Shown here: piece after piece, positions 12,736 to 60,531 of the stretch
Numbering within the stretch: the first letter of the stretch is position 1
How the letters are laid out: each line of letters starts with the position of its first letter
Source: Candidatus Nealsonbacteria bacterium
GTDB lineage: Bacteria; Patescibacteriota; Minisyncoccia; Minisyncoccales; MHMH01
Length of the DNA stretch: 64,000 bases
NCBI GenBank assembly: GCA_016188865.1
Contig: JACPGX010000005.1
Coordinates: 114,081 to 178,080 of the forward strand
Direction of reading: 5' to 3'
The notes under the pieces: generated by a model
Databases searched by the model: none
What the model was told of the DNA's origin: nothing
Seen by the model: only the letters and a program-made list of their open reading frames with translations
Made by a program: the position numbers and the translations under genes

Positions 12736-12774
12736 TTGTTAGACACTCGGTGTTGGACACCGAGTGTCTAACAA
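12736..12774. repeat. REP-like palindrome, family 1 (TTGTTAGACACTCGGTGT-TGG-ACACCGAGTGTCTAACAA), at the 3' flank of RAYT-1
   Basis: It has perfect 18-bp arms. A second hairpin of the same family lies at 13469-13507 on the other side of the gene. A half-site lies inside the gene at 13266-13283. Confidence 0.9.
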
Positions 12775-12777
12775 TCT

Positions 12778-13452
12778 TCAATCAAGTAATTGTTTTTCAT
12801 CTAGTATTTTGGATAAATCTTTAGCTCCGCTTGTTTCCACGAATAATTTATACTTTTCACTGCTAGAAAATTGTTTGGTGACAATGCCAGTTTCTAAAAG
12901 ATTTCCCCACCGATTTTTATTTATACAATCCTGGTAACTAGAATAAGGGAAGAGGTGTTCTCTGTCGGCCCATTCCTTGATTTCTCTTGGATTGCGGTGA
13001 ATATAAGCGGAGAGATAAAGAAGCTGGTCGTCATTTTTAATATGGACAATTTGAAATGGGCCCTGAAAAAGATGCCCCGAGATTTTATATTTTGTATTGA
13101 AGTATTTTGTATAAGCGTTTAAAACTCTTTGCATATATTGGGAAATACCGTTTTCTTTTAATCCGTGGATAATTAAATGGAAATGATTTGGCATCAGCGT
13201 GAAATTAATCAATTCTATGCTTCGATTTTTTATTATTTCCTCTACAACCTCCCGCGAGATGTTAAACACCGAGTGTCTAACAAAGCAGGCAACTTGTCTG
13301 CCGAGATTATAGAAAGTCAAATGAGATTGGCAGTGAGTGATTAAGAAAAGAAATCTTATCCAATCTTTTTCATCACGAAAAACTGGTTGTTTATTATTAC
13401 CCCTATTGTAGATGTGATAATATTCTCCGGAAACAATTTTAACTTTTCTCAT
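12778..13452 (-). CDS. REP-associated tyrosine transposase (RAYT / IS200-IS605-like HUH Y1 transposase), paralog 1
   Basis: HUH motif MPNHFHLII, catalytic Tyr motif YIHRNP, and an N-terminal GEYYHIYNRG beta-strand. It is flanked on both sides by cognate hairpins. Confidence 0.75.
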   Translation of the reverse strand: MRKVKIVSGEYYHIYNRGNNKQPVFRDEKDWIRFLFLITHCQSHLTFYNLGRQVACFVRHSVFNISREVVEEIIKNRSIELINFTLMPNHFHLIIHGLKENGISQYMQRVLNAYTKYFNTKYKISGHLFQGPFQIVHIKNDDQLLYLSAYIHRNPREIKEWADREHLFPYSSYQDCINKNRWGNLLETGIVTKQFSSSEKYKLFVETSGAKDLSKILDEKQLLD

Positions 13453-13468
13453 ACGTTCTTATTCTAGC

Positions 13469-13507
13469 ATGTTAGACACTCGGTGTCCAACACCGAGTGT
13501 CTAACAT
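13469..13507. repeat. REP-like palindrome, family 1 (ATGTTAGACACTCGGTGT-CCA-ACACCGAGTGTCTAACAT), at the 5' flank of RAYT-1
   Basis: It has perfect 18-bp arms and lies 16 nt upstream of the RAYT-1 start. Confidence 0.9.
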
Positions 13508-13665
13508 GGCAGGATTATTCAACATAGTGCCCAACATTTACTAGTGGGACTTAAACAAAATGACCCCCGTTGAATACAGGGATCATTTGCTGGCATTAAA
13601 TGCCTAAAACGTGCTTTTTTATTCGTGTCCACTAAACGGGGTACACTTCACACCCGTGTATTTTT

Positions 13666-18258: not shown

Positions 18259-19749
18259 GTGAAAATCCTGCTTTTATATCCTAGGTTTCCCAGGACTTTC
18301 TGGGGATTTAAATACGCTTTACCCTTTATCGGAAAAAAGGCGACTTTTCCGCCCCTAGGATTATTAACGGTAGCGACTTTGCTGCCTCAAGATTGGGAAA
18401 AAAGAATAATTGATCTAAATATTGGAGATTTTAGTGGAAAAGATCTTCAATGGGCAGATTTGATTTTTATTTCAGCCATGGCCCTGCAGAAAGAATCGGT
18501 CTGGGAGATTATATATCATGCTAAAAAATTAGGAAAAAAAATTGTTGCCGGCGGGCCGCTTTTTACCACCGGTTACGAAGAATTTTTTAATAATATCGAT
18601 CATTTTGTTTTGGGCGAAGCGGAAGATGTCATGCCTCTTTTGGTCCAGGATTTAGAAAGGGGCAGTTTGCAGAAAATTTATCAATCCAACCAGCGGCCAG
18701 AGGCTGATAAAATTCCTCTGCCTTCGTGGGAATTAATTGATATGAACAAATACGCCTCGATGAGCATCCAGTTTTCCAGAGGCTGTCCTTTTAATTGCGA
18801 ATTTTGCGACATAGTTTATTTAAATGGCAGAGTTCCAAGAGTAAAAAATAAAGAACAGGTTTTGGCCGAGCTCGATGCTTTATACTTCAACGGTTGGCGT
18901 GGTAATGTATTTTTCGTAGACGATAATTTTATTGGGAATAAAATAAAGTTAAAAAGAGAAATTTTGCCAGCTATTATTGGATGGATGGGAGCCAAAAGGC
19001 ATCCTTTCTCTTTTCATACGCAAGTTTCTATTAATCTTGCCGACGACCTAGAACTGATAAAATTGATGACCATGGCCGGTTTCGATACTGTTTTTATCGG
19101 CATAGAGAGCCCCAAAGAAGAGAGCCTTAAGGGCTGCGGAAAAGTGCAGAATATTAACCGTGATTTATTGAACTCGATAAGAATTTTTCAAAATAATGGC
19201 TTGCAAGTTCAGGCAGGATTTATCATTGGCTTCGACCAGGATACGCCTTCGATTTTCGACCGCATGACGCTTTTTATCCAAAAAAGCGGCATAGCCATCG
19301 CTATGGTCGGGCTCTTGCAGGCGCCGCCAAAAACTAGATTGTGGGACAGAATGAAGAAAGAGGGAAGATTGGTTTCGCAAGCTAGTGGCGACAATACCAA
19401 TTGCACTATTAATTTTGTCCCTAAAATGAATCGTGAGATTTTGCTTGCTGGCTATAAAAAACTCACCGCTCATATTTATTCGTCTAAATATTACTATCAA
19501 AGATTGAAAACTTTTTTGAAAGAATATAAGCCCGAAAGGAAGAAGATATCCCGTCGGATTAGCTTTAGCCGGCTTCTGGCTTTTCCTAAATCGCTTTGGT
19601 TTTTAGGGTTCATGCATAAGGAGAGAATTTATTACTGGGAGCTTCTTTTTTGGTGTTTTTTTAGAAAGCCTAAATTTTTTCCGATGGTTATTGATATGGC
19701 GATTAAGGGATTCCATTTCCGTAAAATTTCAGAAAACCACCTATGTTAA
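18259..19749 (+). CDS. B12-binding domain radical SAM protein (class B, DUF4070-type C-terminus); GTG start
   Basis: An N-terminal cobalamin-binding Rossmann segment and a CPFNCEFC (CxxxCxxC) radical SAM cluster motif. Confidence 0.8.
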   Translation: MKILLLYPRFPRTFWGFKYALPFIGKKATFPPLGLLTVATLLPQDWEKRIIDLNIGDFSGKDLQWADLIFISAMALQKESVWEIIYHAKKLGKKIVAGGPLFTTGYEEFFNNIDHFVLGEAEDVMPLLVQDLERGSLQKIYQSNQRPEADKIPLPSWELIDMNKYASMSIQFSRGCPFNCEFCDIVYLNGRVPRVKNKEQVLAELDALYFNGWRGNVFFVDDNFIGNKIKLKREILPAIIGWMGAKRHPFSFHTQVSINLADDLELIKLMTMAGFDTVFIGIESPKEESLKGCGKVQNINRDLLNSIRIFQNNGLQVQAGFIIGFDQDTPSIFDRMTLFIQKSGIAIAMVGLLQAPPKTRLWDRMKKEGRLVSQASGDNTNCTINFVPKMNREILLAGYKKLTAHIYSSKYYYQRLKTFLKEYKPERKKISRRISFSRLLAFPKSLWFLGFMHKERIYYWELLFWCFFRKPKFFPMVIDMAIKGFHFRKISENHLC

Positions 19750-19880: not shown

Positions 19881-19925
19881 CTTGTAGCAAATTTAAATGT
19901 ATATTTGTTGCAAGGAGGTAGTTAA

Positions 19926-20057
19926 ATGACAATATATCATGATAATGAAAAAAGATTATTTAAAATTCGCGAGCGCCTGGAGGAATATCGAAAACATAAG
20001 AATGACCCTTATGTCTATTATTTAGACGTTGAACGTCTAACATTGAGACCAAAATAA
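19926..20057 (+). CDS. Small hypothetical protein (43 aa, MTIYHDNEKRLFKIRERLEEYRKHKNDPYVYYLDVERLTLRPK)
   Basis: A strong SD (AAGGAGG) lies 7 nt upstream. A promoter lies upstream. The stop codon abuts the inverted repeat at 20056. Confidence 0.35.
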   Translation: MTIYHDNEKRLFKIRERLEEYRKHKNDPYVYYLDVERLTLRPK

Positions 20058-20075
20058 TGGTGCCTGTCCCCATTT
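20056..20075. repeat. 20-bp terminal-inverted-repeat-like element AATGGTGCCTGTCCCCATTT, copy A
   Basis: Reverse-complement copies lie at 20914-20933 and 22305-22325. A same-orientation copy lies at 20948-20968. Confidence 0.8.
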
Positions 20076-20128
20076 TCATTTTTGCTATGGGTGTAGGGCG
20101 ACTGAAACGCATTGCGTAAGCTCCCCCC

Positions 20129-20158
20129 TTTACAAAAATTTGGTTTAGGCGTATAATG
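20129..20158 (+). promoter_or_regulatory. Sigma70-like promoter (TTTACA-18-TATAAT)
   Basis: A consensus -10. It is followed by SD AAGGAGG and ATG 20207. Confidence 0.5.
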
Positions 20159-20206
20159 CAATATTCCAGTTAGATGGAAAGAGATTTGGTGTAAGGAGGG
20201 TATAGA

Positions 20207-20578
20207 ATGGAGAAAAAAAGAAAAAGGGAAACTTTCTTCTGTCCTCAATCTATAAATGAGGTTGAAAAGCAGAAAAAGAGGACGGGAATTCCTAGCACTT
20301 GTTCTTTGGATGAAATGGTCAAAATATTGAAGGATAATAGCAAGGAGCCAGTTTTCGTTACTATAGCTCAATTACGAGGATATCCGGCATATGGTATATA
20401 CGATGAAGCTGGACAAAAAAATCCACCGTATGGTTTCCATTTTGATGCTCAGATAATGGTGCCAGGAGGTGGTGTTACTACACACACTAGTCTTCTAGTG
20501 AGTGGTGAATTTCTTGAAGAAACGGGAGCAAAAGATCGCGACGAAGTGATAATTATCATAGCCAAAAGAGAAAAGTAA
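20207..20578 (+). CDS. Hypothetical protein, possible ribbon-helix-helix-like N-terminus (cargo of an inverted-repeat-bounded element)
   Basis: It has its own promoter, SD and terminator. It lies between inverted repeats A and B. Confidence 0.4.
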   Translation: MEKKRKRETFFCPQSINEVEKQKKRTGIPSTCSLDEMVKILKDNSKEPVFVTIAQLRGYPAYGIYDEAGQKNPPYGFHFDAQIMVPGGGVTTHTSLLVSGEFLEETGAKDRDEVIIIIAKREK

Positions 20579-20588
20579 GAATAGTGAA

Positions 20589-20630
20589 GGCCTAGAGGGT
20601 AACAAACTCTCTGGCCTTTTTATTTTTTAC
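20589..20630 (+). terminator. Rho-independent terminator
   Basis: A GGCCTAGAG...CTCTCTGGCC hairpin followed by TTTTTATTTTTT. Confidence 0.7.
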
Positions 20631-20913
20631 CCCGACCGAGACGCACCGGTGGAAGAGCTCAAAATAGCCTAATTTTTCCTCTGATAACTTGGTTCTAGAC
20701 CGGGGCACACAGCAAACTGAAATTTCCCCGAACAGGGGAAATTGAAGTTTGCTTGTGGGGTTTTCGGTGAGAATCAAGTCCCTGAATTCCGAGCCCACAG
20801 GCGAGGGAATGCCTTCGGGCAACTCTTCGAATTCAAGTCCCGCAGCCATCATATGCTAAGTCAGGTGACTGAGATGCATGTCTAAAATCGTAACGAAAAA
20901 TCACCGTAATGGT

Positions 20914-20933
20914 AAATGGGGACAGGCACCATT
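20914..20933. repeat. Inverted copy B of the 20-bp repeat (AAATGGGGACAGGCACCATT)
   Basis: It is the reverse complement of copy A. Confidence 0.8.
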
Positions 20934-20947
20934 TCTAATCTATTTGT

Positions 20948-20968
20948 AATGGTGCCCGCCCCCATTTT
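20948..20968. repeat. Copy C of the 20-bp repeat (AATGGTGCCCGCCCCCATTTT)
   Basis: It is in the same orientation as copy A and lies 15 nt after copy B. Confidence 0.7.
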
Positions 20969-21248
20969 CATCATTTTCACGAGGTTAAAAAAGAACGCGG
21001 AAAGGAATATTACAAATACACCAAAATAATGATGTTGCAAAAATTCAGCTTCGAAGGGTTTTTAAAGGCGCTGGAGGAGGGGAAAGTCCTCGTGGATTTT
21101 GATGCGCGCACCGGTCATAACCACGGAACAAAATTTAGAATGCGACAGGATTGCTTACCGATGCTTTATAAAAAGGCCACGAAGGTTCTTCCTTAAAATA
21201 TAACCGGCCATATAATCAATAGCTAAATAAATTAAATACAGTGCCAAT

Positions 21249-21437
21249 TTAGGCGTTTTTGCTTGATTTTGGTGTTCGATTTCGTAAATCGAACATTTTC
21301 TTTATCTCCTTAATTTGAGAATCAATGGAGAGCGCTTCATCCCTTTCAGTTGACTTCCTGGCGTAGAGGCAATAACGGAGAGGGGCGAGAATTGGCTGCT
21401 GCTCTCGAGCCGTTTCGATTGTTGTTTGTTGTTCCAT
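21249..21437 (-). pseudogene. Serine recombinase (resolvase/invertase) N-terminal fragment
   Basis: The translation contains YCLYARKSTERDEALSIDSQIKEIKKM, matching the catalytic-serine motif YxRVSTxxQ...SLxxQ. The frame breaks after about 60 aa. Confidence 0.5.
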
Positions 21438-21530
21438 AAAAGTCCCTTAAAATACTTGTTTTTTACCTTCGACCTTTCAAGACAAGGGATGACGCAACCC
21501 TCCTAGGGAGTCCAGTCCTGTTATCCCTAG

Positions 21531-22004
21531 TCAAGTCTTGCTGGGGATAAACGGCGTTCCGCGCCGAAGGACCGCATAAATGCGCGAAAGGAGTTTTCGT
21601 GTCGTGGCAACGGTCGCCACGGTATAGCATTTCCCTTCACTTCGTTTCTTTTCGTAATATGCTTTGAGTTCCGGATCAAACATACGCGCGACATTCGCCG
21701 CGATAAAGAGCGCTCTCCGGAGATAGGGCGATCCCCGTTTCGTAAGTTTGCCGTAGCTATTCAATGCGTGGCCGCTTCGGCGAATTATGGTTTGGAGAAG
21801 CGCGACTTCCGGCTCACGCTGTGATCGAGCGAAGAGTTCTCGTTCATGAGTGCGGATGGCATCTGCCAATGCTTCGCCACTCTGCTCTAATCGATTGCGG
21901 AGAGCCTCGAGTGACGGCGTGGAGCTTTGAAAATCAATGCTTTGCTGTGATCTGTACCCCGAAAAGTGGACACATTTGATCTGTACCCAGAAAAGTGGAC
22001 ACAT
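21531..22004 (-). pseudogene. IS110-family transposase, C-terminal fragment only
   Basis: GKLTKRGSPYLRRALFIAANVARMFDPELKAYYEKKRSEGKCYTVATVATTRKLL matches the Transposase_20 (IS116/IS110/IS902) C-terminal domain. The N-terminal DEDD domain is absent. Confidence 0.7.
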
Positions 22005-22005
22005 T
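21949..22005. repeat. Tandem direct repeat, two copies of about 29 bp (GATCTGTACCCCGAAAAGTGGACACATTT)
   Basis: Two adjacent copies with one indel and one substitution. It lies inside the degraded IS110 region. Confidence 0.8.
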
Positions 22006-22061
22006 GTGTCCCTTTTTTGTAGTTTTGGTAAGATGTAAAGGTAAAATTAAGCATAAAAAAT

Positions 22062-22355
22062 ATGAACAGAAAAATATTTACAGAGGAGCAGATAAAAGAG
22101 CTATCCAGGAACAAAAACGTGCGCCGCTGCGGCGCCAAGTCCGTGAGATACAAAAGGAGCTTCAAGGAATCAGCCCTCAGGCGGTACCATGAGGAAGGAT
22201 TGAGCGCGGTTGAAATATTCAAGGCAGCCGGCTTTAATCTGAACATCATCGGCATCAGGAAGCCTAACAAGCTGATGCACCAGTGGAGCAGGGCTCCCTG
22301 CAATAAATGGGGACAGGCACCATTTCCAATCTATAGTCCTTATGTTATTGTCTAA
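22062..22355 (+). pseudogene. Transposase-associated HTH protein fragment
   Basis: MNRKIFTEEQIKELSRNKNV...LSAVEIFKAAGF is an HTH typical of the N-terminal ORF of IS elements. The reading frame runs through the 20-bp repeat copy D. Confidence 0.35.
22305..22325. repeat. Inverted copy D of the 20-bp repeat (AAATGGGGACAGGCACCATTT)
   Basis: It is in the same orientation as copy B and bounds the IS-remnant island on the right. Confidence 0.8.
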
Positions 22356-22610
22356 GCGGGACACAATGGGTTTTGTTTGATTTCGTAAATCAAACAAATC
22401 AAACAATTTTTGACGGGAAGTTCTGAGAGAGCTTCCCTTTGTGTTAGTCTGTGAAATAAACTCAACCGAGATGCTTAGTTTTTGGAATCCCAAACCAGCC
22501 AAATTTGTTCCTGAATTTCTGGTTCTAGACCGAGGATGCCAGCAGTCTAGTGCTGAGTATCGAGGACCGAGAGGGATCATTATAGTTAATGAGATAAAAG
22601 AAAAGCAGGA

Positions 22611-22982
22611 TTAGTTATCCTGCTTTTGCAATAGTTTTTTTAGATGAGGTATTACTATTTTTTTAGCTATGAAATCTACGGGGCAAGTTATTCCATGAGC
22701 CCAACGCGTAATTGTCGGACGCGATACATCGAATTCTCTAGCGAGTTGTTGTTCACTTCCCGGGTTCTTAGACAGAAAAGCGTTTAGTAAGTCATACATT
22801 TCTGGCTGTCCGTAATTTTTGAGTGTGACGCAAGGATAGAATCCGCCATCTGCGCCTTTTTGACGTTCGATTCCAGCGATTACTACGGCTACTAGTTTGT
22901 CGTCTTCATAGACCAATACGCGAGCGGGGCGTTCTGAAGTTGCGACTTCAGATTCCGTTTCAACTCTTATCATTTCGCTCAT
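22611..22982 (-). CDS. HTH DNA-binding protein (C-terminal helix-turn-helix LAREFDVSRPTITRWAHG)
   Basis: A small protein with a C-terminal HTH. It is divergently oriented to the Cys-rich repeat protein operon. The start is chosen at the MSEMIRV ATG. Confidence 0.4.
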   Translation of the reverse strand: MSEMIRVETESEVATSERPARVLVYEDDKLVAVVIAGIERQKGADGGFYPCVTLKNYGQPEMYDLLNAFLSKNPGSEQQLAREFDVSRPTITRWAHGITCPVDFIAKKIVIPHLKKLLQKQDN

Positions 22983-23070
22983 AACTTTTCCTCCACACAT
23001 CAGTTTTTAAGGTTCCTTTCCAAACAGTAGCATATTCTTTAGTTATCCACAAGACAGTATTGACAGGGTT

Positions 23071-23079
23071 TGGTATAAT
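23071..23079 (+). promoter_or_regulatory. Extended -10 promoter element (TGgTATAAT) giving a near-leaderless transcript for the 23086 gene
   Basis: TGnTATAAT ends 6 nt before ATG 23086. An upstream TTGACA is too close (8 nt) to serve as a -35. Confidence 0.4.
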
Positions 23080-23085
23080 AAAGGC

Positions 23086-23313
23086 ATGAGAAATATTATT
23101 ATTTTTATTATCGTTTTAGTGTTAGCTGCAGCCGGAGCTTATTATTTCGGCTATCAGCAGGGTTTTTCCAAAGGGAAAGAAATGGGGAAGGCCGCGGCTG
23201 AAGTTGGCGCTGGCGCTGCGGTGGAAAATCCGCTAGAGGAAATGCCGTCAACCAATCCTTTCGAGGAGGCGGTAAATCCATTTAAGGATTTATATAAGAA
23301 TCCATTTAAATAA
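23086..23313 (+). CDS. Small membrane-anchored hypothetical protein (75 aa)
   Basis: An N-terminal TM helix, then a Gly/Ala-rich segment and NPF repeats. Confidence 0.5.
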   Translation: MRNIIIFIIVLVLAAAGAYYFGYQQGFSKGKEMGKAAAEVGAGAAVENPLEEMPSTNPFEEAVNPFKDLYKNPFK

Positions 23314-23330
23314 TATTATTTAAATGGATT
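23299..23330. promoter_or_regulatory. 32-bp perfect AT-rich palindrome (AATCCATTTAAATAAT|ATTATTTAAATGGATT) spanning the stop of the 23086 gene and the start codon of the Cys-rich gene
   Basis: It has perfect 16-bp arms. ATG 23324 lies within the right arm. Confidence 0.7.
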
Positions 23331-25030
23331 TTAAATTTATGAAGAAATATTATTTTTTATTAATTTTTATTTTTGTATTATTTTCCGGAGTTTTAGTTTT
23401 TGCTACCTCCAAAGAAGATATTACTTATCCTGTAGCTTCGTTGGGAAATTGCAAAAACGAAGCGGATTGTCTAGCTTACTGCGACAAGCCGGAAAATATG
23501 GAGCCCTGTCTTAATTTTGCCGAAAAGCATAATTTAATTACCGATAAAGAGATTGCTATAGCCAGAAAAATGCTGGCTGCAGGAAAAACTTCGGGACCCG
23601 GAGGCTGTAAAGGACAAGTTGAGTGCGGAAATTATTGTGATGACATGAGTCATATAAAAGAATGCGTTGCTTTTGCGGAAGAAAATGATTTGATGATGCC
23701 GGAAGAATTAGCAGAGGCAAAAAAAGTTGCCGCGGCCCTAGAAAGGGGGGTTCAACCTCCGCCGTGCAGCAGTAAAACAGAGTGCGATAGCGTTTGCACT
23801 CTTCCCGAAAACATGAGAACCTGCATTATTTTTGCTAAAGAAGCCGGTTTAATGCCTCCGGAAGAACTGGAAGAAGTTGAAAAAGTTTTAGCAGCGCTTG
23901 ATAAAGGAATAACGCCTCCGCCTTGCGGAGGTAGGGATAAATGCGATGAGTATTGTTCTTTGCCAGAAAATTTTGAAACCTGCATTACTTTTGCCGAAGC
24001 AGCTGGCTTTATGTCGGCAGAAGAAGCAGCTATGGTCAGGCGTACTGGGGGCAAGGGTCCGGGTGATTGTCGCGGCAAAGAAGCATGCGAAGCGTTTTGT
24101 GAAGACCCGGCTAATATGGAGCCATGTATAAATTTTGCTATTGAAAATGGTTTTATGTCCCCCGAAGAGGCGGAGCAAGCTAGAAAAATGCTAGCTGCCG
24201 GGTTTACTTCGGGCCCGGGTGGATGCAAGGGGCAGGGAGAATGCGAAGCTTATTGCGATGATATGACTCATATGACAGAATGCGTTGATTTTGCTGAAAA
24301 AGCCGGCTTTATGACTGCAGAAGATGCTGCTCGAGCCAGAAAAATGGCAGAAATGGGCATGACTGGCGGTCCGGGAGGTTGCAAGGGCGAAGAAGAATGC
24401 CGGTCATTCTGCGAAGACCCTGCCAATATGAATACTTGCATTGATTTTGCAGTTCAAATTGGCGATATGAGCCCCGAAGAAGCTGATCAAGCCCGCCAAA
24501 GAATGGGGCAGATGCAAGAGATGGAGGGCCGGATGAAAGAATGTTTAGTAATGCCCTGTCCGGATGCTCTTGCTTGTTTCCAAAGTATTCAAGGTGAACA
24601 AGGCGGCTCACCAGAAGAAGGTGAAGCAGGCGAGGGCGGCGGCGCTATGGGTTCCAGCGCAGAAATTCAGACTAAGATAGAATCCTGCATACAGGAAATG
24701 CAGCAGCAAGGTGGCGGGGAAGGAGCAGGTTTTGGTCCGGGTTCGGAAATGATGCCGCCTGAAGGGTTTGAAGGAGAAATGCCGCCGTTTAATCAAGGAG
24801 AATTTCATGAAGGCCAAATACCAGAAGGTTTTGTACCATCGGAAGGTATGAGCCAACCTCCTTCCCAAGAAGAAATGGAGAGAATAATTCAAGAAGAAAC
24901 TCAAAGAAGAATTCAGGAGGAAACTCAAAGAATGATGGAGCAATTTGTTCCGCCTCCATCTACCGAACCTCCGCCGCAGTCTTTTTTAAACCAAGTCAAA
25001 AATTTCTTAGCAGGCTTAATGGTAAGATAA
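23324..25030 (+). CDS. Secreted cysteine-rich tandem-repeat protein (about 7.5 modules of about 48 aa with the spacing C-x5-C-x3-C-x8-C and a PENM...C..FAE..G motif) with an acidic Gly/Pro/Gln-rich C-terminal tail
   Basis: An N-terminal signal peptide. The repeats are visible in the translation (CLAYCDKPENMEPCLNFAEKHN, CGNYCDDMSHIKECVAFAEEND, CDSVCTLPENMRTCIIFAKEAG, and so on). GC content is higher than in the flanks. Confidence 0.7.
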   Translation: MDFKFMKKYYFLLIFIFVLFSGVLVFATSKEDITYPVASLGNCKNEADCLAYCDKPENMEPCLNFAEKHNLITDKEIAIARKMLAAGKTSGPGGCKGQVECGNYCDDMSHIKECVAFAEENDLMMPEELAEAKKVAAALERGVQPPPCSSKTECDSVCTLPENMRTCIIFAKEAGLMPPEELEEVEKVLAALDKGITPPPCGGRDKCDEYCSLPENFETCITFAEAAGFMSAEEAAMVRRTGGKGPGDCRGKEACEAFCEDPANMEPCINFAIENGFMSPEEAEQARKMLAAGFTSGPGGCKGQGECEAYCDDMTHMTECVDFAEKAGFMTAEDAARARKMAEMGMTGGPGGCKGEEECRSFCEDPANMNTCIDFAVQIGDMSPEEADQARQRMGQMQEMEGRMKECLVMPCPDALACFQSIQGEQGGSPEEGEAGEGGGAMGSSAEIQTKIESCIQEMQQQGGGEGAGFGPGSEMMPPEGFEGEMPPFNQGEFHEGQIPEGFVPSEGMSQPPSQEEMERIIQEETQRRIQEETQRMMEQFVPPPSTEPPPQSFLNQVKNFLAGLMVR

Positions 25031-25043
25031 AAAATAAATAAAA

Positions 25044-25075
25044 ACATACGAGAACGGTTCTCGTATGTTTTTATG
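25044..25075. terminator. Bidirectional rho-independent terminator (perfect 12-bp stem ACATACGAGAAC-CG-GTTCTCGTATGT, T-runs on both sides)
   Basis: The hairpin is followed by TTTTTAT on the plus strand. On the minus strand it is followed by TTTTTATTTATTTTTT, downstream of the rnpB 3' end. Its core ACGAGAACGGTTCTCGT also occurs inside miaA and thrS. Confidence 0.8.
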
Positions 25076-25076
25076 T

Positions 25077-25442
25077 CCCAGCAAGTCTATAAGCCGAATT
25101 CTGTTCCGCCTCGTCGGCGGATGGTAATTATCTATCTAGGTCCGACATCGCTGTCGAGACTCTGTGCGAGTTACTTTTAACGAAAGTTCCAAGATGAATC
25201 CCAGAACTTCCGGTTTACTCTTGCTCTTGGGTAAGAATTTAGCCGTTTCACCCTTCGACAAGCTCAGGGCAAGCCCCAAACTAGTGAAGACTCGTCTCTG
25301 TTCGCATCTCTGCCTCGCCCAAAATTTTGGGCGGGCGGCAGGTGTTACCTGCTACCTTTTTAACCCCCGTTAAACGGGGAGTAAGAGTTCGGACTTTCCT
25401 CCAGGCACAGTCTTGTGCCTGGCAATCACCCGACTTACTGGG
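25077..25442 (-). ncRNA. rnpB: RNase P RNA (bacterial type A-like)
   Basis: The minus strand contains GGAGGAAAGTCCGAACTC (P4 5' strand), AGGGTGAAACGGC (the GGGUGAAA region) and ACAGAATTCGGCTTAT (P4 3' strand). A P1 helix forms between CCCAGTAAGTC and GACTTGCTGGG. Confidence 0.8.
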
Positions 25443-27702: not shown

Positions 27703-27762
27703 TTTGTCAAAGTCCTGGTGTCATAGTAAGATGATATTGGTTTTTTGACAAGGAGGTGTAAA

Positions 27763-28986
27763 ATGCCGGTTACAGTAGTTCTAGGAGCACAATGGGGAGA
27801 CGAGGGCAAAGGAAAGATAACCGATTTTTTAGCCAAAAAAGCCGATGTTTGCGTTAGATTCAGCGGCGGCGATAATGCCGGACACACGGTAATAAACAAG
27901 CGGGGCGAGTTTAAGCTTCATTTGATACCTTGCGGAATCTTCAATCCGGAAACCTTGTGTATTATCGGAAACGGAGTAGCGGTCAATCCTAATGTTTTGA
28001 TTGGGGAAATGGCTGCCTTGGAGCAGAGAGGCGTTAGCTGTAAAAATTTGAGAATAAGCAGTAAGGCTCATTTAATTATGCCATGGCATTTGGCCCTTGA
28101 CGGCCTGCAGGAAGAAGAAAGAGGCGAAGGAAAAATCGGCACAACCAAGCGCGGCATAGGCCCGGTATTTTCAGATAAAATAGGCAGATTCGGATTGAGG
28201 GTAGAAGATCTTTTTGCGGAAAACATGGAGCAAAAATTAAGAAAACTTCGAGAGCGGTCAGCCACTTTGCTTTTGATGGTTTATGGCTACAAGAGCTATG
28301 ATTTAATGTACGATGTTATTTTGAAAAACCTGCTAGACTTTAAAAATCGCATTTCTCCGTTTGTCACCGAAACCGAACCGGTTCTTTGGGAAGCTTGCGA
28401 TCAAAAGAAAAGAATTTTAATGGAAGGGGCTCAGGGGATTATGCTTGATCCTGATTTTGGAACTTACCCCGAAACCACTTCTTCGCCATGCACCTTAGCT
28501 AGCGCTTTGCAGGGTTCCGGAATTTCCTGGATGGAGATTAAGGAAGTAATCGGCGTGGTTAAGGCTTATACGACAAGGGTTTGCGAAAAAAATATCCCCT
28601 TTAAAACTGAAATGCCAAGCGCAATAGCCGATCCCTTCAGGGAGCACACCAAAGAGTATGGCGCAACTACCAACAGGCCGAGAAGAATCGGCTGGCTGGA
28701 TGCTTCCTATTTAAGATACGCTGCGAGAATAAATGGTTTTACCGGTTTGGCGGTTACTCGGATGGACAGCTTGGGCACATTTCACTTTTCTGGAGGAAAA
28801 GTGAAAATTTGGGACGGCAATAAATATCTTGAGATGCCGGGCAAGTGGGGCAGAGATATTAAACACCTCAATGCCATACTGTTTTTGCAAGCTGTTGAAA
28901 AACTGGCAGGGGTTAGGGTCAAATACATTTCTTACGGGCCGGAAAGAGAACAGGTGGCGATTGTAAAAAACAGATTTTTATTTTAA
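27763..28986 (+). CDS. purA: Adenylosuccinate synthetase
   Basis: GAQWGDEGKGK and GGDNAGHT motifs. SD AGGAGG lies upstream of ATG 27763. The ORF-track start at 27745 is upstream of the SD. Confidence 0.9.
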   Translation: MPVTVVLGAQWGDEGKGKITDFLAKKADVCVRFSGGDNAGHTVINKRGEFKLHLIPCGIFNPETLCIIGNGVAVNPNVLIGEMAALEQRGVSCKNLRISSKAHLIMPWHLALDGLQEEERGEGKIGTTKRGIGPVFSDKIGRFGLRVEDLFAENMEQKLRKLRERSATLLLMVYGYKSYDLMYDVILKNLLDFKNRISPFVTETEPVLWEACDQKKRILMEGAQGIMLDPDFGTYPETTSSPCTLASALQGSGISWMEIKEVIGVVKAYTTRVCEKNIPFKTEMPSAIADPFREHTKEYGATTNRPRRIGWLDASYLRYAARINGFTGLAVTRMDSLGTFHFSGGKVKIWDGNKYLEMPGKWGRDIKHLNAILFLQAVEKLAGVRVKYISYGPEREQVAIVKNRFLF

Positions 28987-41108: not shown

Positions 41109-41133
41109 ATGTAACGGGTACGACCCGTTACAT
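41109..41133. repeat. REP-like palindrome, family 2 (ATGTAACGGGTACGACCCGTTACAT), at the 5' flank of RAYT-2
   Basis: A perfect 10-bp stem with an ACG loop. It ends at the RAYT-2 start codon. Confidence 0.9.
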
Positions 41134-41851
41134 GCATAATATGCCGGGGAAAAGAAAGGTACAATTTGTTAATGGGGGAATATATCATATCGTAACGAGA
41201 GCCGTTGATGGCACGGAACTTTTTCGTGAACAAGGCGATAATCTTCGGATGACTCATGATATTTTTGAATTTAATGATTTAACGCCACTTTCATCAGCGT
41301 TGCGAATTGTTCATTGTCGAAATAAAAATAACACCATTCCTCTTACTACGGAACGCAGAGAAAGGAAATTATTAGTGGAAATCTTGGCATTTTGTTTTAT
41401 GCCTAACCATGTTCATTTATTACTTAGACAACTTCAAGACAGGGGAGTTCAAAAATTTATGCAAAAATTAGGTGGTTACACCACTTATTATAATAAAAAA
41501 TATCAGAGGCAGGGTTATCTTTTTCAGGGCAGATATCGAGCAGTTCACATTAAAGATGATAAACAATTAATGACGGTATTTGTTTATATTCATACTAATC
41601 CAGTGGCCCTTCTTTACCCGGGCTGGAAAGAAAGAGGTATTAAAGATATTAAAAAGGCCATAGAATTTATTAATCAATATAGATGGTCAAGCTATTTGGA
41701 TTATCTGGGAATTAAGAATTTTCCGTCTTTGACCAGTAGAGAATTTTTAATAAAAACAATAGGTGGAATGGAAGAGTGCCAAAGATTAGTAGAAGATTGG
41801 CTTTATCAAAAACGTGTACTATTTGACCTTGATAAGGTCGCACTGGAATAA
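41132..41851 (+). CDS. REP-associated tyrosine transposase (RAYT), paralog 2
   Basis: HUH motif MPNHVHLLL, Tyr motif YIHTNP, and the C-terminal WSSY motif (RWSSYLDYLG). The start is set at the ATG overlapping the palindrome; 41141 is also possible. The ORF-track start at 41084 reads through the palindrome. Confidence 0.75.
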   Translation: MHNMPGKRKVQFVNGGIYHIVTRAVDGTELFREQGDNLRMTHDIFEFNDLTPLSSALRIVHCRNKNNTIPLTTERRERKLLVEILAFCFMPNHVHLLLRQLQDRGVQKFMQKLGGYTTYYNKKYQRQGYLFQGRYRAVHIKDDKQLMTVFVYIHTNPVALLYPGWKERGIKDIKKAIEFINQYRWSSYLDYLGIKNFPSLTSREFLIKTIGGMEECQRLVEDWLYQKRVLFDLDKVALE

Positions 41852-41875
41852 TGTAACGGGTACGACCCGTTACAT
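41851..41875. repeat. REP-like palindrome, family 2, at the 3' flank of RAYT-2
   Basis: A perfect copy overlapping the RAYT-2 stop codon. Confidence 0.9.
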
Positions 41876-41932
41876 TTAGTTTTCCACAATTGGGGGCTTG
41901 ATTTTGACTTAATTTTAGGGTAAAATAGAGTA

Positions 41933-58808: not shown

Positions 58809-60531
58809 CTTTTTCCATTTTAACTTTTTCTGTGAATTTACTCAACTCCATAGCTCCAATATCGCCCCTTCCCCTTTCTCTAACGCTTATTTTGCCAGAT
58901 TCAGCTTCCTTGTCGCCCACGACTATGAGGTAGGGGACTTTTTGAAGTTCGCCTTCTCTGATTCTTTTAGAAACAGTTTCATTTCCATTATTTATCTCAA
59001 TTCTAAGGAAGTTAAGCTCATCTCTAATTTTTTCCGCATATTGATTATGTCTGTCGGCTATGGGAATGATCATGCATTGAACCGGTGATAGCCATAAAGG
59101 TAAGGCTCCCGCATAGTGTTCCAGAAGAAAAGCCATGGTTCTTTCTATGGCGCCGATTGAAGAGCGGTGTATGACAATCGGCTCTTTTTCCTTGCCATCT
59201 TGATCAATATAGCTAAGTTTGAATCTTTTGGGCATAACAAAATCGTACTGTATGGTAAAGGCAGTGTCTTCTTTCCCGGCGAAGTTTTTCATTTGAATGT
59301 CGATTTTCGGGCCGTAAAAAGCAGCCTCTTTTTGAGCTTCAAAAAAGTTATCTTTGCCTCTTTTGGTAAGAACGTTTCTTAAAACTCCCTCGGCAAAATT
59401 CCAGGCCTCGTTATCTTTAAAATATTTTTTAGAGTCTTTTCTGTCGCCTAAGGATAATCTATAGCGATAATTTACGCCGGCTTTCAGCCCTAATTTTAAA
59501 GCCATATATTCGATTAAATCTAAAACTCCATTGATTTCGTCCATAGCCTTTTCTTTTTGGCAGATAATATGGGCATCGGCTAAACAGAAAGATCGTACCC
59601 TGATTAGGCCGGTCAATTCGCCCGATTTTTCGTATCGAAATTGCTTGGCTAATTCGGCAATCCTAAAGGGCAATTCTTTATATGACCTTGGTTTTGAAGC
59701 ATACAGCTGAAAATGATGAGGGCAGGTCATAGGTCTTAAAATCAGCTCTTCCTCGTCAATTTTCATGACAGGATACATTGAATCTTTGTAATACGGATAA
59801 TGCCCCGACGTTTTATACAGTTCCACTTTGGCTAATTCTGGAGTATAAACGTGCTTATAGCCTCTTTTTATTTCTTCATCGACTACAAAACGTTCCAGTT
59901 CCCTTCTAATGATAGATCCCTTTTCGGTAAACAAGGGGAGGCCCTTGCCGACTAAATCGGAAAAAACAAATAAATCTAAATTTTTTCCTATAATCCTATG
60001 GTCTCTTTTTTCAGCTTCTTCCTGTATTTTGAGAAAATCCTCCAGTTCTTTTTTTATTGCAAAAGCTACCCCGTATATTCTGGTCAGCATTTTATTTTTT
60101 TCAGAGCCCTTCCAATAAGCTCCGGCAATTTTCGTCAGCTTAAAAGCATCGGGGGTTATCTCTTTTGTTGATTTAACATGCGGCCCCGAACACAAATCAA
60201 CAAACGTTCCTGATTCGTATATAGTCGGCTGCTTAATTTCCTTTAGCAGCTCTAGCTTATACGGTTGTTTTTTGAACATCCTGACGAGAACGGTTCTCGT
60301 CAGTTTTTGTTTTTTGAAAACAATGTTTTGCGCCAGCAGTTCGCGCATTTTTTTCTCTATTTTCAGCAGGTCTTCCGGCGCTAGGGGAACGGATAATTCG
60401 AAATCGTAATAAAAGCCGTTTTCAATGGCGGGCCCAATGCCAAATTTGGCGCCGGGATATAACTCCTGCACTGCGTAAGCCATTATATGGGCCAAAGAAT
60501 GGCGGATAGTTTCGATTTTAGCAGACATCAA
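58801..60531 (-). CDS. thrS: Threonine--tRNA ligase (short form without the N-terminal TGS/editing extension)
   Basis: SLAHIMAYAV (zinc-site HxxxH region), class II motifs and a C-terminal anticodon-binding domain. It contains an in-frame 23-bp palindrome at 60281-60303. Confidence 0.9.
   Translation of the reverse strand: MMSAKIETIRHSLAHIMAYAVQELYPGAKFGIGPAIENGFYYDFELSVPLAPEDLLKIEKKMRELLAQNIVFKKQKLTRTVLVRMFKKQPYKLELLKEIKQPTIYESGTFVDLCSGPHVKSTKEITPDAFKLTKIAGAYWKGSEKNKMLTRIYGVAFAIKKELEDFLKIQEEAEKRDHRIIGKNLDLFVFSDLVGKGLPLFTEKGSIIRRELERFVVDEEIKRGYKHVYTPELAKVELYKTSGHYPYYKDSMYPVMKIDEEELILRPMTCPHHFQLYASKPRSYKELPFRIAELAKQFRYEKSGELTGLIRVRSFCLADAHIICQKEKAMDEINGVLDLIEYMALKLGLKAGVNYRYRLSLGDRKDSKKYFKDNEAWNFAEGVLRNVLTKRGKDNFFEAQKEAAFYGPKIDIQMKNFAGKEDTAFTIQYDFVMPKRFKLSYIDQDGKEKEPIVIHRSSIGAIERTMAFLLEHYAGALPLWLSPVQCMIIPIADRHNQYAEKIRDELNFLRIEINNGNETVSKRIREGELQKVPYLIVVGDKEAESGKISVRERGRGDIGAMELSKFTEKVKMEKDA
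60281..60303. repeat. Perfect palindrome CTGACGAGAACGGTTCTCGTCAG in-frame within thrS, encoding LTRTVLV
   Basis: It is the reverse-complement orientation of the miaA copy. The encoded peptide is identical. Confidence 0.9.

Follow-up and report, generated by a model that had tools for sequence, protein, structure and literature searches.

A two-gene cassette of Patescibacteria encodes a putatively exported cysteine-module repeat protein and a small membrane partner

Patescibacteria account for a large share of bacterial diversity, have tiny genomes and possess few lineage-specific proteins with a known role. Here, a 64,000-nucleotide (nt) stretch of a Candidatus Nealsonbacteria contig, referred to as the window (positions are 1-based throughout), was analysed with regard to two adjacent genes on its plus strand. 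The upstream one, gene 1, encodes a small membrane protein, and the downstream one, gene 2, a longer repeat protein rich in cysteines. A first-pass annotation of the same DNA had proposed a secreted or surface protein at gene 2, and the features read from the sequence indeed point to an exported, Cys-rich protein made of tandem modules. The locus is composed of the following elements, the conserved pair being given first and the features around it last.

23086-23313, plus strand: gene 1, a 75-amino-acid (aa) single-pass membrane protein (open reading frame, ORF, and homologues)
23299-23330, no strand: perfect 16+16-nt palindrome at the cistron junction (self-complementarity, no spacer)
23339-25030, plus strand: gene 2, a putatively exported Cys-module protein of 563 aa (ORF, NCBI match and conserved start)
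23339-23404, plus strand: predicted Sec signal peptide (read from the sequence by eye)
23405-23449, plus strand: N-terminal cap motif before the first cysteine (94-sequence alignment)
23450-24535, plus strand: seven tandem modules, each of three predicted helices, starting at 23450, 23606, 23765, 23924, 24068, 24224 and 24380
24542-24688, plus strand: degenerate C-terminal Cys unit (Cys spacing and predicted helices)
24689-24979, plus strand: acidic spacer, predicted to be disordered, rich in P, E, G, Q and M (composition and low predicted local distance difference test score, pLDDT)
24980-25027, plus strand: C-terminal amphipathic/hydrophobic helix SFLNQVKNFLAGLMVR (predicted helix)
23051-23079, plus strand: promoter-like site (consensus match only)
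25038-25074, no strand: perfect 18+18-nt hairpin, terminator-like (inverted repeat)
22611-22982, minus strand: divergent 123-aa ORF with a weakly helix-turn-helix (HTH)-like C-terminal half, a neighbour outside the conserved unit
25074-25441, minus strand: RNase P RNA gene (Rfam RF00010)

The longest ORF of gene 2 runs from 23324 to 25030 on the plus strand and encodes 568 aa, and a second in-frame ATG at 23339 (MKKYYF...) gives a product of 563 aa. Either ATG could be usable; the start that is kept in relatives and used by NCBI is the one at 23339, which lies 9 nt 3' of the palindrome. The product is 100% identical to the NCBI hypothetical protein HYV47_03600, from a metagenome-assembled genome of Candidatus Nealsonbacteria. 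Scanning with a regular expression revealed seven exact C-x5-C-x3-C-x8-C units, starting at aa 43, 95, 148, 201, 249, 301 and 353 and thus spaced by periods of 52, 53, 53, 48, 52 and 52 aa. The modules share 32-54% identity at the aa level and 60-78% at the DNA level, and they are too diverged to be reported by Tandem Repeats Finder, whose sole output for the gene is a 24-nt repeat present in 2.8 copies at 24866-24933, in the tail, where it encodes QEE[MT][EQ]R[IR]I. The cysteine spacing described by the first-pass annotation is therefore exact in 7/7 modules, while its count of about 7.5 copies of a module of about 48 aa has to be amended: the modules are indeed in tandem, but they are typically 52-53 aa long, and seven copies are followed by a different, degenerate unit in place of an eighth half copy. 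In this unit the cysteines are arranged as C407-x4-C412-x5-C418, followed by 36 residues and C455; the homologue P0006 carries it twice.

The same spacing is the consensus of the whole family, as evaluated on 1,933 modules out of 259 family proteins. All four cysteines (C1 to C4) are kept in 97.5% of these modules, and the consensus reads C-[KR]-[GS]-K-E-E-C-E-A-Y-C-x-D-P-E-[HN]-M-E-E-C-[IL]-x-F-A-E-x-x-G-[LF]-[MI]-[SP]-P-E-E-A-E-x-A-[RK]-K ... G-P-G-G, in agreement with the PENM-x-C-x-x-FAE-x-x-G-[FL]-M-x-x-EE motif noticed previously. In 95% of modules the position five residues after the third cysteine (C3+5) holds His or Asn. Upstream of the array, a cap motif, (D/E)-I-x-Y-P-V-x-E-L-G-N, leads to the first cysteine, and its residues P31 and L35, together with C38, are invariant in 94 sequences.

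An AlphaFold2 model built on the 94-sequence alignment has a mean pLDDT of 83.6, with values above 90 across all modules and low confidence over the signal peptide. Each module is predicted to fold into three helices: a short helix 1 with C2 and C3; beyond a one-residue break (D/x-P), a helix 2 of 13 residues with C4; and, after a G-[LF]-[MI]-x-P loop, a helix 3 of 12-15 residues. C1 lies three residues before helix 1, and GPGG or PPP linkers follow the modules. A model of two modules gave a pLDDT of 88 and a predicted template modelling score of 0.68. In the degenerate unit, helices are predicted at residues 407-421 and 441-457 (model numbering), and the spacer drops to a pLDDT of about 40 over model residues 461-505. 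The tail is modelled as disordered save for three helices, the last of which is the C-terminal helix SFLNQVKNFLAGLMVR at residues 549-562. From the geometry of the module our guess is that a C2-C4 disulfide would bridge the hairpin of helices 1 and 2 and that C1 would pair with C3 by means of the conserved G/S turn after C1. Disulfide pairing could not be derived from the co-loss of cysteines in the 1,933 modules because nearly all of them retain the complete set.

The module, which the first-pass annotation had been unable to recognise, finds no match among curated families, PDB sequences or solved folds, and no known repeat family in Pfam, NCBIfam or PDB reached threshold. In particular, Foldseek against the PDB returned a best E of 0.81, with noise-level matches to generic helical repeats only; the sequence and profile search of the PDB gave nothing significant, the best match being NDUFB7, a CHCH protein, at E 0.28. 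The full gene 2 protein scored at best 14.7 bits in Pfam-A (AtDEF-like, cut-off 25) and 12 bits in NCBIfam (cut-off 125). When 60 module pairs were scanned one by one against Pfam, no match passed its threshold (E-values of 5e-4 or weaker), and a two-module profile gave nothing above threshold against Pfam or PDB. A literature search found no description of the gene 1 or gene 2 family.

The weak matches that recur (NDUFB7, defensin-like families and scorpion toxins) reflect cysteine spacing and no homology. CHCH or twin-Cx9C proteins, such as NDUFB7 and Cox17, resemble the putatively disulfide-stapled module in being short helix-turn-helix units with two disulfides; however, they carry Cx9C twice, in contrast to C-x5-C-x3-C-x8-C in 7/7 gene 2 modules, and the NDUFB7 match is not significant. 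Moreover, each of them is a single domain and resides in the mitochondrial intermembrane space, whereas gene 2 would encode an extracellular tandem array. Cysteine-stabilised alpha/beta peptides (plant defensin-like peptides, scorpion short toxins, late nodulins) share the initial C-x5-C-x3-C, and their Pfam models matched 27 (defensin-like), 12 (scorpion short toxin) and 16 (late nodulin) of the 60 module pairs, all below gathering scores. Their folds possess at least six cysteines, with a CxxxC helix and a CxC strand, whereas the gene 2 module has four cysteines, no CxC and an all-helical prediction. Sel1-like repeats (SLR), including the Helicobacter Hcp proteins (HcpB), are alike in general kind to the predicted gene 2 product, being secreted helical repeat proteins stapled by disulfides; the pattern that characterises them, a 36-aa repeat of helix A and helix B with the SLR consensus and a single disulfide per repeat, does not apply to gene 2.

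The N-terminus of the gene 2 product consists of MKK, followed by the 19-residue hydrophobic stretch YYFLLIFIFVLFSGVLVFA and by V-F-A before T-S, as judged by eye. A basic n-region, an h-region and small residues at -1 and -3 read as a putative cleavable signal peptide of the Sec type, in line with the signal peptide proposed earlier, and similar signal-peptide-like N-termini, with the same layout, are present in all of the more than 80 homologues. No other export or sorting signal emerged. The window protein has no RR in its first 30 residues, and a loose match to the twin-arginine translocation (Tat) motif occurs in 1/75 homologues. A lipobox is absent from the window protein, whose first Cys is ORF residue 43, in module 1, and a lipobox-like pattern occurs in 1/75 homologues. 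An LPXTG-like motif is likewise absent from the window protein, with loose matches in 4/75 homologues and no match to NCBIfam sorting-signal models. The mature protein has a pI of 4.36 and a net charge of about -54, and the median pI of the homologues is 4.7.

At the other end, the acidic low-complexity tail of the earlier description is well borne out: it comprises about 150 aa, has a pI of 4.1 and is rich in E, Q, P, G and M. Its Met content is 6.8%, against a family median of 4%, and a Met-rich, copper-binding tail was ruled out as a family trait on account of this low median. In the window protein the stretch PPPQ precedes the C-terminal helix SFLNQVKNFLAGLMVR, which is hydrophobic and ends with a terminal basic residue. 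Most homologues similarly end with a Pro-rich stretch and a hydrophobic or amphipathic helix of 15-20 aa, often with a terminal R or K, and the helix passes a hydropathy cut-off in 43/75 of them. Homologues at five loci (L054, L063, L072, L078 and L079) are without the amphipathic helix and have instead a Cys-rich ending, ...SCSYVPPQFKDLCEKCKGE.

Taken as a whole, this layout resembles that of Gram-positive surface proteins such as protein A and the proteins with GA modules, which have a signal peptide, three-helix modules of about 50 aa, a Pro-rich wall-spanning region and a hydrophobic C-terminus with a basic end. The gene 2 product differs from them in that it has no LPXTG, shows no sequence or fold match and has putatively cysteine-stapled modules.

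Gene 2 does not stand alone. The 75-aa gene 1 product has a short N-terminus, one transmembrane (TM) helix, a GAYYFGYQ motif and four NP[FL] motifs, and its tail, ENPLEEMPSTNPFEEAVNPFKDLYKNPFK, ends in KNPFK. Related loci were collected by a scan of one genome per GTDB species, which returned 80 loci; the script for the gene pair covered 82 loci, in 75 of which a gene 1-type ORF lies directly upstream of the repeat gene, with gaps mostly between -4 and +40 nt. Two of the seven remaining loci sit at contig ends. In the window the gap measures 10 nt to the ATG at 23324 and 25 nt to that at 23339. At four loci identified by exact protein look-up, an unannotated ORF of 80-86 aa always precedes the repeat gene and all other neighbours differ. 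The homologues of gene 1 share a short basic N-terminus, one TM helix and three to five NP[FLMV] motifs in the tail, the last NPF being placed one residue from the C-terminus in 55/72 sequences. A profile built from 27 of these small proteins retrieved at least 816 family members of 81-120 aa, annotated as hypothetical, from Patescibacteria where labelled with a taxon and with essentially no consistent Pfam domain. In the reverse direction, 3/3 gene 1 homologues that were looked up are followed by a protein with six Cys modules, and one of them is labelled Daviesbacteria.

Clustering of the neighbour ORFs of the 80 loci revealed no conserved third gene, and since no other family occurs in more than 9 loci, the unit consists of exactly two genes. 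Gene 1 is thus the one conserved partner of the repeat protein, a point absent from the first-pass annotation. An S41 peptidase lies beside the cassette in 9/80 loci, dnaK/dnaJ in 4/80 and an M48 peptidase in similarly few, a pattern that suggests shared synteny in only part of the family; by eye, the remaining recurrent neighbours resemble unrelated housekeeping genes. In the relatives nearest to the window (L001-L003, L086, L087 and L089) this proteostasis neighbourhood is present, and the cassette is downstream of hrcA-grpE-dnaK-dnaJ and/or the M48 peptidase, and at L001-L003 it is also upstream of the S41 peptidase, which is Ctp-like with a PDZ domain.

At least 1,619 proteins match gene 2, all of them unnamed or 'hypothetical' and, where the source is named, from Patescibacteria. 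For a search of wider sequence collections, the seven window modules were combined into a profile of 52 positions and compared with 1.84 billion cluster representatives (50% clustering), of which 1,618 were retrieved at E <=1e-3 and 834 at E <=1e-30. The best 150 profile matches listed are always multi-copy arrays, with 5-12 matched stretches each. The 80 loci derive from Nealson-, Yanofsky-, Nomura-, Azam-, Giovannoni-, Gribaldo-, Lipton-, Sung-, Wildermuth-, Magasanik-, Uhr- and Kuenenbacteria and from unnamed Patescibacteria; the two-gene unit is, as far as sampled, restricted to this group. Across these many candidate phyla gene 2 retains 35-70% identity, with 4-10 modules and a spacer of about 190 aa (median) rich in P, G, E and Q, and the closest homologues are found in other Nealsonbacteria-like genomes.

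Each window module is closest to the module at the same position in the homologues (56-59% identity, scores of 149-244) and not to its neighbours within the protein (scores of 64-157). This indicates that the array is old, that each position is separately constrained and that concerted evolution has not taken place. In some members the array is followed by additional domains, namely one to three Kazal protease-inhibitor domains in P0019 and P0114 and a LamG lectin-like domain in P0147. Both are typical of extracellular proteins, and Kazal domains need disulfides; the fusions therefore indicate that the module array can carry other extracellular domains.

How the two genes are expressed together can be read in part from the signals around them. 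One promoter-like site and one terminator-like hairpin show genes 1 and 2 as a predicted bicistronic operon. The former consists of AAGACA, a spacing of 17 nt and an extended -10 element, TG-n-TATAAT, with 10/12 consensus matches, the -10 ending 7 nt before the ATG of gene 1; at L003 and L005, inspection by eye shows TGnTATAAT boxes before the small ORF too. The TGgTATAAT element is so near to the ATG of gene 1 (interval 23072-23088) that the mRNA is possibly leaderless or nearly so. A consensus scan found no plus-strand promoter-like site between the two genes. After gene 2, the 18+18-nt hairpin at 25038-25074 adjoins the convergent RNase P RNA gene, of class A (25074-25441, minus strand; Rfam RF00010, 114.9 bits), and looks like a shared bidirectional terminator; the segment delimited in the first-pass annotation ran into this RNA gene.

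A further feature of the locus is the palindrome at the junction (23299-23330). Its 16-nt arms are perfect and have no spacer, it occurs a single time in the window, and none was seen in 100 shuffles (expected 0.00), the chance being estimated at about 3e-5 per 64 kb. The palindrome covers the last four codons of gene 1 together with its stop, the left arm AAT CCA TTT AAA TAA T encoding N-P-F-K-stop, and the ATG at 23324, which was created by the palindrome. An overlap with the stop of the upstream gene and the ATG of gene 2 had been described before; the perfect arms, the stop and the ATG at 23324 hold, but the conserved start is at 23339. The right arm occupies the position that is a Shine-Dalgarno-like AAGGGG in relatives. 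At the RNA level, the window junction folds at -17 kcal/mol with z = -3.8, within a range of -3.8 to -4.7 for junction hairpins, and 16/76 junctions fold with z < -2.

Among the 74 other loci with the small ORF, none has perfect arms longer than 9 nt at the junction and the palindrome is absent from 70, thus the perfect palindrome is not a family feature. Imperfect hairpins are found at the same junction in the four closest relatives (60-73% aa identity), namely L006, L086, L088 and L089. The L006 hairpin, AATCCCTTTAAATA-G-TATTTAAGGGGATT, differs from that of the window by a compensatory change of A-T to C-G and by one U-G wobble; the L088 stem is similar to it and less perfect; L086 and L089 pair in another register, ACGAATCC ... 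GGATTCGT. The right arms of L006 and L088 include AAGGGG, located some 10 nt before the conserved ATG, which corresponds to 23339 in the window. Indeed, NPF codons (AAY CCN TTY) are naturally complementary to AAGG-type sequences. A T-rich tract lies 3' of each junction hairpin, in the window and in the relatives, and makes partial termination an alternative mode of action. As further observations on this interval, in three distant relatives, L026 (5812-5982), L041 (1107-1412) and L091 (3292-3602), the short gap between genes 1 and 2 holds long-inverted-repeat inserts of 170-310 nt that fold at -74 to -119 kcal/mol; those at L026 and L041 share the termini GACCTGTTGCTTAATAA, and the inserts have the look of miniature inverted-repeat transposable elements.

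From these comparative data we conclude that the two genes are probably translationally or transcriptionally tied, by an RNA hairpin in the Nealsonbacteria-like clade. Translational-coupling or intercistronic hairpins are known, as is template-switch mutation of quasi-palindromes. The junction is like the former in that a stem-loop ties the 3' end of the first cistron to the region where ribosomes would bind for the second, and the coupling hairpin considered in the first-pass annotation fits both the presence of hairpins in relatives and the compensatory change. Unlike typical coupling hairpins, the window has lost its Shine-Dalgarno-like sequence to the palindrome, and its coupling mechanism may therefore differ from that of the relatives. 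Since the palindrome is perfect through its centre and imperfect in relatives, the perfect centre, together with the change of AAGGGG to AAATGG, suggests that a DNA-level template switch may have corrected an ancestral quasi-palindrome.

Collectively, these features lead us to favour, if only by a modest degree, a reading in which the two proteins form an extracytoplasmic structural or scaffold complex with disulfide-stapled modules, whose expression is tied by the RNA hairpin. After export, each module would be locked by two disulfides, and the array of modules would be elongated and strongly acidic (net charge of about -54). It would be held at the membrane surface by the Pro-rich spacer with the terminal helix, by the NPF tail of the partner, or by both, so that the products of genes 1 and 2 would build a complex with a structural or scaffold role in the cell envelope and would be neither enzyme nor regulator. 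In parallel, the junction hairpin would connect, at the RNA level, the final codons of gene 1 with the ribosome-binding region of gene 2, whose expression would depend on, or be set relative to, that of gene 1; this may occur by sequestration of the Shine-Dalgarno sequence until the terminating ribosome frees it, or else by partial termination. Genomes of the candidate phyla radiation are enriched in MdbA-like thiol-disulfide oxidoreductases, often beside VKOR (Méheust et al., bioRxiv 10.1101/335083), which makes a machinery for extracytoplasmic disulfides plausible.

Several observations weigh against such a complex or against parts of it. The C-terminal helix is both too short and too polar for a standard TM anchor and is missing in about 1/4 of homologues. 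NP-motif number and module number are uncorrelated (Spearman rho 0.03), thus a docking model with one motif per module is not supported. Basic residues lie on both sides of the TM helix of gene 1, whose topology is ambiguous. As for the hairpin, most loci with very short gaps (<10 nt) are without one (median z -0.2) and have instead abutting or overlapping stop and start codons, and the Shine-Dalgarno-like sequence of the window is itself degraded, from AAGGGG to AAATGG.

A bolder version of the same idea, which we regard as possible yet improbable, sees the pair as a core envelope component specific to Patescibacteria, in which the array would recognise NPF peptides and the gene 1 product would act as membrane receptor or anchor, building an acidic surface layer or a contact organelle.

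Unlikely, too, although it is the chief rival reading for the protein, is a role in the binding of metals (Zn, Cu, Fe) or as a redox buffer, that is, a sacrificial thiol or thioether sink outside the cell, with the Met-containing tail assisting. The 28 invariant module cysteines, the His or Asn at C3+5 in 95% of modules, the charge of -54 and the 6.8% Met of the window tail would be suited to such a function; in the model, one face of helix 1 bears C2 and C3 and helix 2 bears C4, and all four cysteines could converge. One homologue has a weak match to Cu-binding_MopE, but this is below the cut-off (25.9 vs 27 bits). However, His alternates freely with Asn at what is a helix N-cap position and looks structural, and the tail Met is only 4% in the family median. 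Moreover, the leader is of the Sec type and not Tat, which makes a cytoplasmically inserted cofactor unlikely, and the Kazal domains of some members, whose disulfide dependence is known from that family, imply an oxidising compartment.

The gene 2 product could also be imagined as the host-attachment adhesin of an episymbiont, an adhesin having been one idea of the first-pass annotation, with the module array serving as stalk or as host-binding surface. The predicted surface location, the tandem modules and the long Pro-rich spacer do recall Gram-positive surface proteins, the module copy number varies from 4 to 10, and one member has the LamG lectin-like domain. Nevertheless, each module is conserved at its own position in the array from species to species, and the lack of concerted evolution argues against a fast-diversifying adhesin and, in comparison with protein A or GA modules, against diversification towards host ligands. 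In addition, identity stays at 35-70% over many candidate phyla with presumably different hosts, neither LPXTG nor another known sorting signal is present, and a dedicated gene for a small membrane partner is untypical of adhesins. A lineage-specific, fast-evolving adhesin is accordingly unlikely.

Two further proposals concern the DNA around the cassette, starting with the divergent 123-aa ORF. The 'HTH protein' of the first-pass annotation retains a weak HTH likeness, but its Pfam HTH matches are all sub-threshold (HTH_3, E 0.0037, 17.7 bits vs a cut-off of 23). A tblastn search of 89 related loci, with ±3-6 kb of flank each, gave no match to it, and its three partial homologues among 5.8 billion proteins make it a near-orphan. 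It has a terminator-like hairpin of its own (22627-22601) and is, as judged from its sequence and setting, probably an accessory gene beside an insertion sequence (IS) fragment and no partner of the cassette. That the palindrome, a perfect 32-bp dyad unique in the window and 300 nt from this weakly HTH-like ORF on the other strand, is an operator bound by a dimer of its product to regulate the operon is highly improbable, given that it is placed inside the transcription unit, about 220 nt past the promoter-like site, that the HTH protein is absent from the 89 loci and the palindrome from 70/74, that no HTH match reaches the Pfam threshold, and that relatives without the protein keep a junction hairpin of different sequence with a compensatory change, as expected of an RNA structure.

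The IS fragment in question is an IS110-family transposase remnant (Transposase_20) at 21531-22004, within a degraded region (19900-22600) of many short overlapping ORFs, just downstream of a B12-binding radical SAM protein with DUF4070 (18259-19749, plus strand). The GC content of gene 2, 0.456 vs 0.40 for the window, had been noticed previously along with these remnants, and both observations stand; however, the GC content at third codon positions (GC3) is 0.36, within the 0.33-0.46 of its neighbours, and with the excess confined to codon positions 1 and 2 it is a matter of amino-acid composition. A purA homologue lies downstream of the cassette in L086, as it does in the window (tblastn with the window ORF 27745-28986); only the upstream flank has been replaced in the window, and relatives have dnaJ and the M48 peptidase there. 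A recent horizontal acquisition of the cassette linked to the adjacent IS110 fragment and degraded ORFs, although suggested by the higher GC, thus has very little in its favour, as GC3 is ordinary, the closest homologues are in other Nealsonbacteria-like genomes, the cassette is widespread in Patescibacteria, purA follows it in a relative too and the upstream side alone was exchanged.

Elsewhere in the window, 51045-51737 matches a protein with a Y1_Tnp Pfam match that adjoins the cassette in L003, and also a counterpart in L086. Two near-identical perfect palindromes, at 12736-12774 and 13468-13508, with arms of 18-19 nt and the core TGTTAGACACTCGGTGT, flank a 224-aa ORF (12778-13452, minus strand) and could act as a pair of terminators or else represent a mobile or regulatory element. 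The palindrome ATGTAACGGGTACGACCCGTTACAT occurs twice about 740 nt apart, at 41109-41133 and 41850-41876, and the hairpins at 25038-25074 and 60281-60303 share the core ACGAGAACGGTTCTCGT; long perfect hairpins are therefore reused in this genome.

What is new here are the Cys module, its small partner and their restriction to Patescibacteria; secreted helical repeats stapled by disulfides were known already. The analysis defines a widespread two-gene unit, with at least 1,600 module representatives (50% identity) and at least 816 partners, that is apparently confined to Patescibacteria and combines a confidently predicted fold with no Pfam, NCBIfam or PDB match. The cassette is a concrete target for the biology of the patescibacterial envelope and surface: both proteins have a size suited to expression, and biochemical tests could start directly from the predicted disulfides and the NPF tail. 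The junction hairpin, in turn, would be a compact case of a coding sequence, the NPF codons, that doubles as the arm of a regulatory RNA, and it may show how a quasi-palindrome was corrected to a perfect one. If NPF recognition by the array were true, the pair would represent a new kind of disulfide-stapled helical repeat and a surface structure without counterpart in other bacteria.

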